In this document: piece by piece, positions 10,291-11,143 of the stretch
How positions within the stretch are numbered: position 1 is the stretch's first letter
How the letters are laid out: each line of letters opens with the position of its first letter
Assembly: GCA_035546615.1 (NCBI GenBank)
Contig: DASZWM010000004.1
Location: 1-11,143 of the forward strand
Source of the DNA: Minisyncoccota bacterium
Lineage (GTDB): Bacteria > Patescibacteriota > Minisyncoccia > Phycocordibacterales > SBAW01
DNA length: 11,143 nucleotides
Reading direction: 5' to 3'
The notes under the pieces: generated by a model
Seen by the model: the letters and a program-made list of their open reading frames with translations, nothing else
The model's database searches: none
Told to the model about the DNA's origin: nothing
Made by a program: the position numbers and the translations under genes

Positions 10291-11143
10291 AGAGTTTGAT
10301 CCTAGCTCAGGATGAATGCTGGCGGCGTGGATAAGGCATGCAAGTCAAGGGGGCCGCAAGGCAACCGGCAGACGAGGTAGTAATACACAGGTACGCACCG
10401 AGAAGTCTGGCATAGCTCGTCGAAAGACGGGGTAATTCCAGATGTTGTGGCGACACCAAAGGAGCAATCCGCTTTTTGAGCGGCCTGTGGAGCATCAGCT
10501 AGTTGGTAAGGTAACGGCTTACCAAGGCTATGACGCTTAGGGGACCTGAGAGGGTGACCCCCACCGATGGGACTGAGATACGGCCCATACACCTACGGGT
10601 GGCTGCAGTCGAGAATCTTCCGCAATGGGCGAAAGCCTGACGGAGCGACGCCGCGTGATTGATGAAGTCCTTCGGGACGTAAAGATCTTTTATGGGGGAG
10701 GAAGTTATTGACGTTACCCCATGAATAAGAGGCTCCTAACTCTGTGCCAGCAGGAGCGGTAATACAGAGGCCTCAAGCGTTATCCGGAATTATTGGGCGT
10801 AAAGGGTGTGTAGGTGGCATTGTTAGTCGTTTGTGAAATATCCGGGCTTAACCTGGAAAACGCGGGCGAAACGGCAGTGCTTGAGTAGGGAAGAGGTAAG
10901 CGGAACTCTCTGTGTAGGGGTGAAATCCGTTGATATAGAGGGGAACACCAAAAGCGAAGGCAGCTTACTGGTCCCTCACTGACGCTGAAACACGAAAGCG
11001 TGGGGAGCGAATGGGATTAGATACCCCAGTAGTCCACGCCCTAAACGATCTTCACTAGCTTTTCAGAGTATCGACCCTCCGAGAGGCGAAGCTAACGCGT
11101 TAAGTGAAGCGCCTGGGAAGTACGGCCGCAAGGCTAAAACTCA
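10291..11143 (+). rRNA. rrs: 16S rRNA, 5' 853 nt (partial; runs off the window end)
   Basis: Starts with AGAGTTTGATCCTAGCTCAG. Landmarks are colinear: CCTACGGG at 302, GTGCCAGCAG at 454, GGATTAGATACC at 724 and AAACTCA at 847 in gene coordinates. There is a constant ~60-nt deficit versus E. coli from shorter V1-V3, and no insertions. Confidence 0.95.

Follow-up and report, generated by a model that had tools for sequence, protein, structure and literature searches.

The pseudoknot between positions 505-507 and 524-526 in helix 18 of small-subunit (SSU) rRNA was reportedly described by Woese and Gutell in 1989, and the 530-loop pseudoknot was first proposed from limited sequence variation. The 530 loop lies in the ribosomal A site, where G530 touches the codon-anticodon helix; G530 and A532 protrude from an unusual backbone that the pseudoknot holds in place, with a stack of five G-C pairs that has been called "all-G-C" (Noller et al. 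2022, PMC9014874). In the account of Powers and Noller (1991) given in PMC3900107, a single change in either strand of the pseudoknot causes a severe growth defect in E. coli, second-site compensation rescues growth, and the pseudoknot can accommodate G.U pairs. That the pseudoknot exists, covaries and can be rescued by compensation has long been settled. We compared this described system, and the 16S rRNA genes of Parcubacteria (OD1)/Paceibacteria, with a 16S gene at the end of an 11,143-nt stretch of DNA, the whole of which is called the window here.

The 530-loop pseudoknot and two further helices in the window

The 16S gene and the parts of helix 18 lie as follows.

10284-11143, + strand: 5' 860 nt of the 16S rRNA gene, clipped at the window end (RF00177, 821 bits (821.1), E 1e-259, model positions 1-903)
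10729-10774, + strand: whole of helix 18 (E. coli 500-545), from the Rfam structure line and pair counts
10734-10736, + strand: 5' strand of the pseudoknot (E. coli 505-507), UCC (DNA TCC), GGC in E. coli
10744-10762, + strand: 515F/519R site (E. coli 515-533), GTGCCAGCAGGAGCGGTAA
10753-10755, + strand: 3' strand of the pseudoknot (E. coli 524-526), GGA, GCC in E. coli

The 16S score is well over the RF00177 gathering threshold of 50 bits. Infernal aligns the whole helix 18 region to this model ungapped and at maximal posterior probability, so the two window trinucleotides correspond by homology to GGC and GCC of the consensus. The E. coli numbering was verified against K-12 rrsH, which has GGC at 505-507, GCC at 524-526 and GTGCCAGCAGCCGCGGTAA at 515-533, and which supplied the references for the two other helices considered below (CUCC/GGAG at 339-342/347-350 and CAGG/CCUG at 783-786/796-799). 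Direct reading of the window recovered every base that the initial annotation had quoted for the 515-533, 338 and 806 sites and for the GGA and TCC trinucleotides, each where it had been placed, and the homology to 505-507/524-526, for which it had asked for a structure-aware check, was confirmed by the Infernal alignment.

The pseudoknot pairs in the window are U505-A526, C506-G525 and C507-G524, all Watson-Crick, at the positions where E. coli has G-C, G-C and C-G. It had been proposed that three pairs, U-A, C-G and C-G, are restored by the exchange; all three do form, but only two of them are swapped, because C507-G524 is the same as in E. coli. Helix 18 has GAGGC/GCCUC as its outer stem and CUCUG/CAGAG as its inner stem. 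The window shares with the known pseudoknot its positions, its three-pair topology, C507-G524, the kept pairs G521-C528 and C522-G527, and its single-stranded loop nucleotides, which at 515-523 and 527-533 (GTGCCAGCA and GCGGTAA, G530 and A532 included) are identical to those of K-12. It differs in that U-A and C-G replace G-C and G-C, so that the helix is no longer all G-C and, with one G-C pair turned into U-A, would be slightly weaker than the "all-G-C" helix of model ribosomes. Complementarity rather than identity is what matters in this comparison, as the mutational work, so far as PMC3900107 relates it, predicts. Since the window and canonical pairs differ by transversions on both strands, base-pairing rules allow no G.U (wobble) intermediate between them.

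Two further sites were compared with K-12.

10589-10608, + strand: 338 site, ACACCTACGGGTGGCTGCAG
11012-11035, + strand: helix 24/790 loop and 806R site, located by primer matching and K-12 numbering

The 338 hairpin (10590-10593 with 10598-10601) consists of C339-G350, A340-U349, C341-G348 and C342-G347; relative to E. coli, A340-U349 has replaced U340-A349, and a U at 10604 stands in place of the unpaired A353. No non-canonical pairs were flagged in the Rfam alignment in the stems around this hairpin. The earlier claim that the 338 target is altered and compensated within its hairpin is therefore borne out, and the exchange recurs among relatives, the 340:349 pair being A-U in 45, U-A in 54 and C-G in 7 of the Parcubacteria loci listed, with position 353 mostly U or C. 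The 806 site (11016-11035) reads ATTAGATACCCCAGTAGTCC, and in helix 24 the pairs U783-A799 (11012 with 11028) and G784-C798 (11013 with 11027) stand where E. coli has C-G and A-U; the change at the 806 site is compensated in helix 24, a point missing from the initial annotation.

The gene looks functional, as had been suggested, because all changes in paired regions of its 5' 860 nt are compensated and the single-stranded nucleotides of the 530 loop are kept. Under the mechanism that we propose, the three-pair pseudoknot U505-A526/C506-G525/C507-G524 would shape the 530 loop of the decoding centre; both strands having changed together, Watson-Crick geometry would be kept, and the unchanged loop nucleotides (G530, A532 and their neighbours) would be displayed as they are in other ribosomes. 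The same logic of compensation would account for the exchange to A340-U349 in the 338 hairpin and for both exchanges in helix 24. By analogy with the published rescue of E. coli by compensatory changes, we infer that the ribosome works normally, and the simplest reading is that the decoding centre would do so with a lineage-specific pair identity.

Pseudoknot states and the lineage that carries them

The exact 19-mer of the 515-533 site was scanned across GTDB with one genome per species, which gave at least 119 loci, and the same 19-mer is present in at least 118 16S genes of species-representative genomes. UCC occupies 505-507 in 118 of the 118 16S genes listed. The scan selected on the 3' strand only, and the 5' strand is therefore an independent test of the compensatory covariation that had been claimed, which goes beyond chance. 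A broader view comes from an alignment of 134 distinct helix-18 segments (K-12, the window, Parcubacteria loci and metagenome variants), for which the metagenomes were scanned for sites where 525 is not C and 526 is not A, leaving out the canonical and window states, and SSU-like segments were chosen by the 511-514/537-540 stem only. Pairing in the pseudoknot reaches 97.8% across these segments and falls to 38-47% if the partner is shifted by 1-3 columns; the unpaired 530-loop columns are invariant. Counted as cells and not as evolutionary events, in a sample skewed by design to non-canonical states, the pairs are G-C 78, U-A 47, A-U 2, C-G 2 and unpaired 5 at 505:526; A-U 75, C-G 49, G.U 4, G-C 1, U-A 1 and unpaired 4 at 506:525; and C-G 132 and U.G 2 at 507:524.

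The commonest alternative state is GAC/GUC, found in AT-rich SSU genes that look organellar (judged by composition only) and in some bacteria. Other fully complementary natural states are GUC/GAC, AAC/GUU, CAC/GUG and GCC/GGC. The last two occur in metagenome 16S genes (L175 with CAC/GUG and L177 with GCC/GGC) that share about 78% identity with Parcubacteria loci; the GCC/GGC state of L177 differs from that of the window at 505:526 only, and could be a halfway state toward UCC/GGA.

Two other sets of sequences are set apart here as observations in their own right. Five long metagenome contigs (L121, L124, L125, L159 and L218) carry UAC/GUC, in which 505:526 is a non-standard U.C and the other two pairs hold; their SSU genes are about 70-74% identical to Parcubacteria loci, and the state appears to be uncompensated. 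Two complete E. coli assemblies from a goat and a horse in Hong Kong (L241, NZ_CP061914.1, and L242, NZ_CP091836.1) have a 1519-1520-nt 16S gene adjoining clpB. The L241 copy, at only 94.4% identity to K-12 rrsH, has a sequence foreign to E. coli near the 515 site, and it is because this 16S copy is atypical that the two assemblies are the best E. coli matches to the query.

Almost all of the records listed from the 19-mer scan are MAGs named Paceibacterota, Parcubacteria, Minisyncoccia or "Patescibacteria group", or Kaiser-, Adler-, Nomura-, Zambryski-, Wolfe-, Yanofsky-, Staskawicz-, Portnoy-, Kuenen- or Gribaldobacteria. A few are labelled Bacillota, Flavobacteriaceae, Gammaproteobacteria, Chitinophagaceae, Omnitrophota or Peribacteria, and fifteen third-party assemblies are labelled "uncultured Candidatus Saccharibacteria". 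The 16S genes of these oddly labelled loci (L066, L075, L089, L094, L104 and L116, together with the fifteen) share 82-94% identity with Parcubacteria-named loci and only 68-75% with E. coli, so the odd labels reflect binning or naming (mis-binned contigs or mislabelled records) rather than a wider distribution. The lone cultivated match, Flavobacterium zepuense (L010), was rejected as a chance occurrence of the 19-mer outside rRNA. Among the matches listed, the substitutions are accordingly not common in cultivated phyla, and the variant is restricted to 16S genes of Parcubacteria/Paceibacterota type in uncultivated MAGs, which agrees with the initial assignment to an uncultivated CPR/Patescibacteria-like lineage.

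The closest 16S among the matches listed belongs to a Paceibacterota MAG (L004; 89.5% identity over the 853 nt available), followed by L002, L014 (Adlerbacteria) and L095 at about 86.7%; E. coli is at 75% over part of the gene. The order folD-secD-secF-...-16S is common to the window, L004, L003, L040, L095 and others, and secD-secF lies upstream of 16S in several further relatives. Compared with Parcubacteria (OD1)/Paceibacteria 16S genes, that of the window has the same 515-533 site with the same UCC partner, identities of 83-89.5% to many members, no following 23S gene, a poor match to 515F and, as in Parcubacteria, shortened variable helices in the Rfam alignment. These likenesses support its placement as a Parcubacteria/Paceibacterota-type (CPR/Patescibacteria) 16S gene. 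Since none of the fetched species representatives listed exceeds 89.5%, the source is probably a distinct lineage of genus or family level among those sampled, and on the basis of 860 nt of 16S and the matches listed it may be a new one. In our reading, the region is very probably part of the single functional 16S gene of an uncultivated member of the Parcubacteria, in which the compensated pseudoknot swap is an inherited lineage signature and not specific to this organism.

A further feature was seen in the 16S gene of one relative, a Kaiserbacteria MAG (L023), which contains a group I intron at 1168-1713 of that locus (RF00028, 61 bits). Group I introns in 16S are a known CPR trait.

Probe matches and rival readings of the gene

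The 27F site was located by primer matching.

10291-10310, + strand: 27F site

In-silico matching gave two mismatches to the window for 515F (both versions), 519R and 534R, all internal and 8-9 nt from the 3' end; three for EUB338-I; one each for EUB338-III and 27F; and none for EUB338-II, 341F, 805R, 806R (both versions) and 515F_Mod. The initial annotation had held that standard primers and probes would miss the gene and had included an altered 806R site. The bases at that site are as it quoted them and are compensated as described above, but the CCCCAG motif lies inside the degeneracy of 806R, which leaves this primer without mismatches. Evasion therefore holds for V4 surveys based on 515F and for EUB338-I used alone, and does not hold for V3-V4 primers, 806R or the EUB338 mix. 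EUB338-II is a component of this routine mix.

The 515F blind spot for Parcubacteria is already published, and this feature of the window is not new. Parcubacteria were named among the lineages missed through primer mismatches (Schulz et al. 2017, PMC5644168), and a 2024 wastewater study found that the V4 pair 515F/806R covers 6.3% of Parcubacteria in SILVA and 0% in MiDAS (PMC10943839). The same study introduced degeneracy at 515F positions 8, 11, 12, 13 and 18 to give 515F_Mod (GTGYCAGMAGBNKCGGTVA), while GGA is not covered by the 515Yp redesign (PMC8269242). A very large group is under-detected by 515F V4 surveys and by FISH with EUB338-I only, a shortfall that is already recognised and for which corrected primers exist.

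Positions 338-355 of the window are an exact 18-nt target of EUB338-II, ACACCTACGGGTGGCTGC, and this probe (GCAGCCACCCGTAGGTGT) is listed as a Planctomycetes probe (PMC4125213). That perfect match, together with a 16S gene lying apart from 23S-5S, an unlinked arrangement common in that phylum, would fit a gene from a Planctomycetes-like organism, a reading to which we give a negligible probability. The nearest 16S genes among the matches listed and the syntenic protein genes are those of Paceibacterota/Parcubacteria MAGs, and the 340:349 pair flips between U-A, A-U and C-G within the Parcubacteria clade. Since this pair flips repeatedly and position 353 varies, the EUB338-II match (A340-U349 plus U353) is convergent: a target designed for Planctomycetales is identical in the window although the organism is not a planctomycete. 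We reject this origin, as the close relatives among the matches listed are all Patescibacteria MAGs. The contig does come from metagenomic data, and one protein of the window was matched only on a 3-kb Logan contig (SRR12170516), which might be taken to point to errors of sequencing or assembly, to chimerism or to a pseudogene in decay. Against this, the same state is present in at least 118 independent assemblies, all helix changes are compensated, Rfam scores 821 bits over 860 nt, and the gene order is kept with relatives. The chance of such an artefact is vanishingly small, and with the state conserved lineage-wide it too is rejected.

A different reading accepts the gene as functional and denies that the swap is neutral: the decoding centre would have altered properties (for example, lower streptomycin affinity or changed accuracy), and fixation would have come about through selection, or alongside S12 changes or the loss of helix 18 modification enzymes. 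Perturbed stability of the helix 18 pseudoknot has been linked to streptomycin resistance or dependence, ribosomes that are not alike in helix 18 structure bind streptomycin with unequal affinity, one of the five G-C pairs in the stack is U-A in the window, and the compensated states of L175 (CAC/GUG) and L177 (GCC/GGC) suggest that pair identity is unusually fluid around the group. However, all three window pairs are Watson-Crick, published compensatory mutants regain function in the account that PMC3900107 gives of them, and the window is without the sequences of S12, RsmG and RsuA; we regard a non-neutral swap as unlikely. A related proposal is that around Parcubacteria (GCC/GGC, UCC/GGA, CAC/GUG) the pseudoknot pairs are unusually free to change. 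Since the steps are double transversions with no wobble intermediate, true freedom of pair identity would imply the crossing of a fitness valley, and repeatedly so, in a single-copy essential rRNA. We consider this an outside chance; if true, it might accompany changes in S12 or in helix 18 modification enzymes, or an intrinsic difference in streptomycin binding or accuracy. It would be worth looking further only if the altered pairs change antibiotic binding or decoding. The lineage confirms the 530-loop pseudoknot from nature and on a large scale, and this is not new. No explicit statement of the UCC/GGA swap as pseudoknot covariation in CPR was found in the literature searched; the gap concerns wording, not knowledge.

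rRNA gene order and protein genes

The remaining genes of the window precede 16S.

1-191, + strand: 3' end of the 23S rRNA gene, clipped at the window start (RF02541, 146 bits, model positions 2721-2925)
732-845, + strand: 5S rRNA gene (RF00001, 75.6 bits)
916-9930, strand given as ".": ten protein genes separating 5S and 16S

The rRNA genes lie on one strand in the order 23S-5S, ten protein genes, 16S, with 9.4 kb from 5S to 16S, and no tRNA was found within the window. The protein genes encode, in order, a hypothetical protein, RodA/FtsW, a GT4 glycosyltransferase (- strand), a sugar transferase, a short FolD-like protein, SecD, SecF, a hypothetical protein, a P-loop kinase-like protein and a membrane protein. 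The order 23S-5S-rodA...16S recurs in L058. Nine close relatives (L004, L002, L014, L095, L017, L038, L065, L116 and L040) have a complete 16S gene in the locus, and in all nine 23S is absent after 16S, tRNAs and protein genes being found 3' of it; the 16S gene is therefore unlinked in the clade of the window.

The spacer between 23S and 5S (192-731) is unusually long: 540 nt, where that of L058 has about 76 nt. No Rfam family above noise was found in it, and it had no blastn match in any fetched locus. An 80-codon open reading frame within it (406-648, MAKFVIRYVV...) is preceded by GGAGGAG, a strong ribosome-binding motif, 9 nt upstream; its product had no Pfam or NCBIfam match, and it may be a real small gene or the remnant of an insertion. 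The FolD-like protein (5221-5943) scores far under the NCBIfam equivalog cut-offs, and its N-terminal catalytic domain gives a partial Pfam match (residues 4-60 against profile positions 2-65 of 115); its length is 240 aa, compared with about 280-300 positions in FolD profiles.
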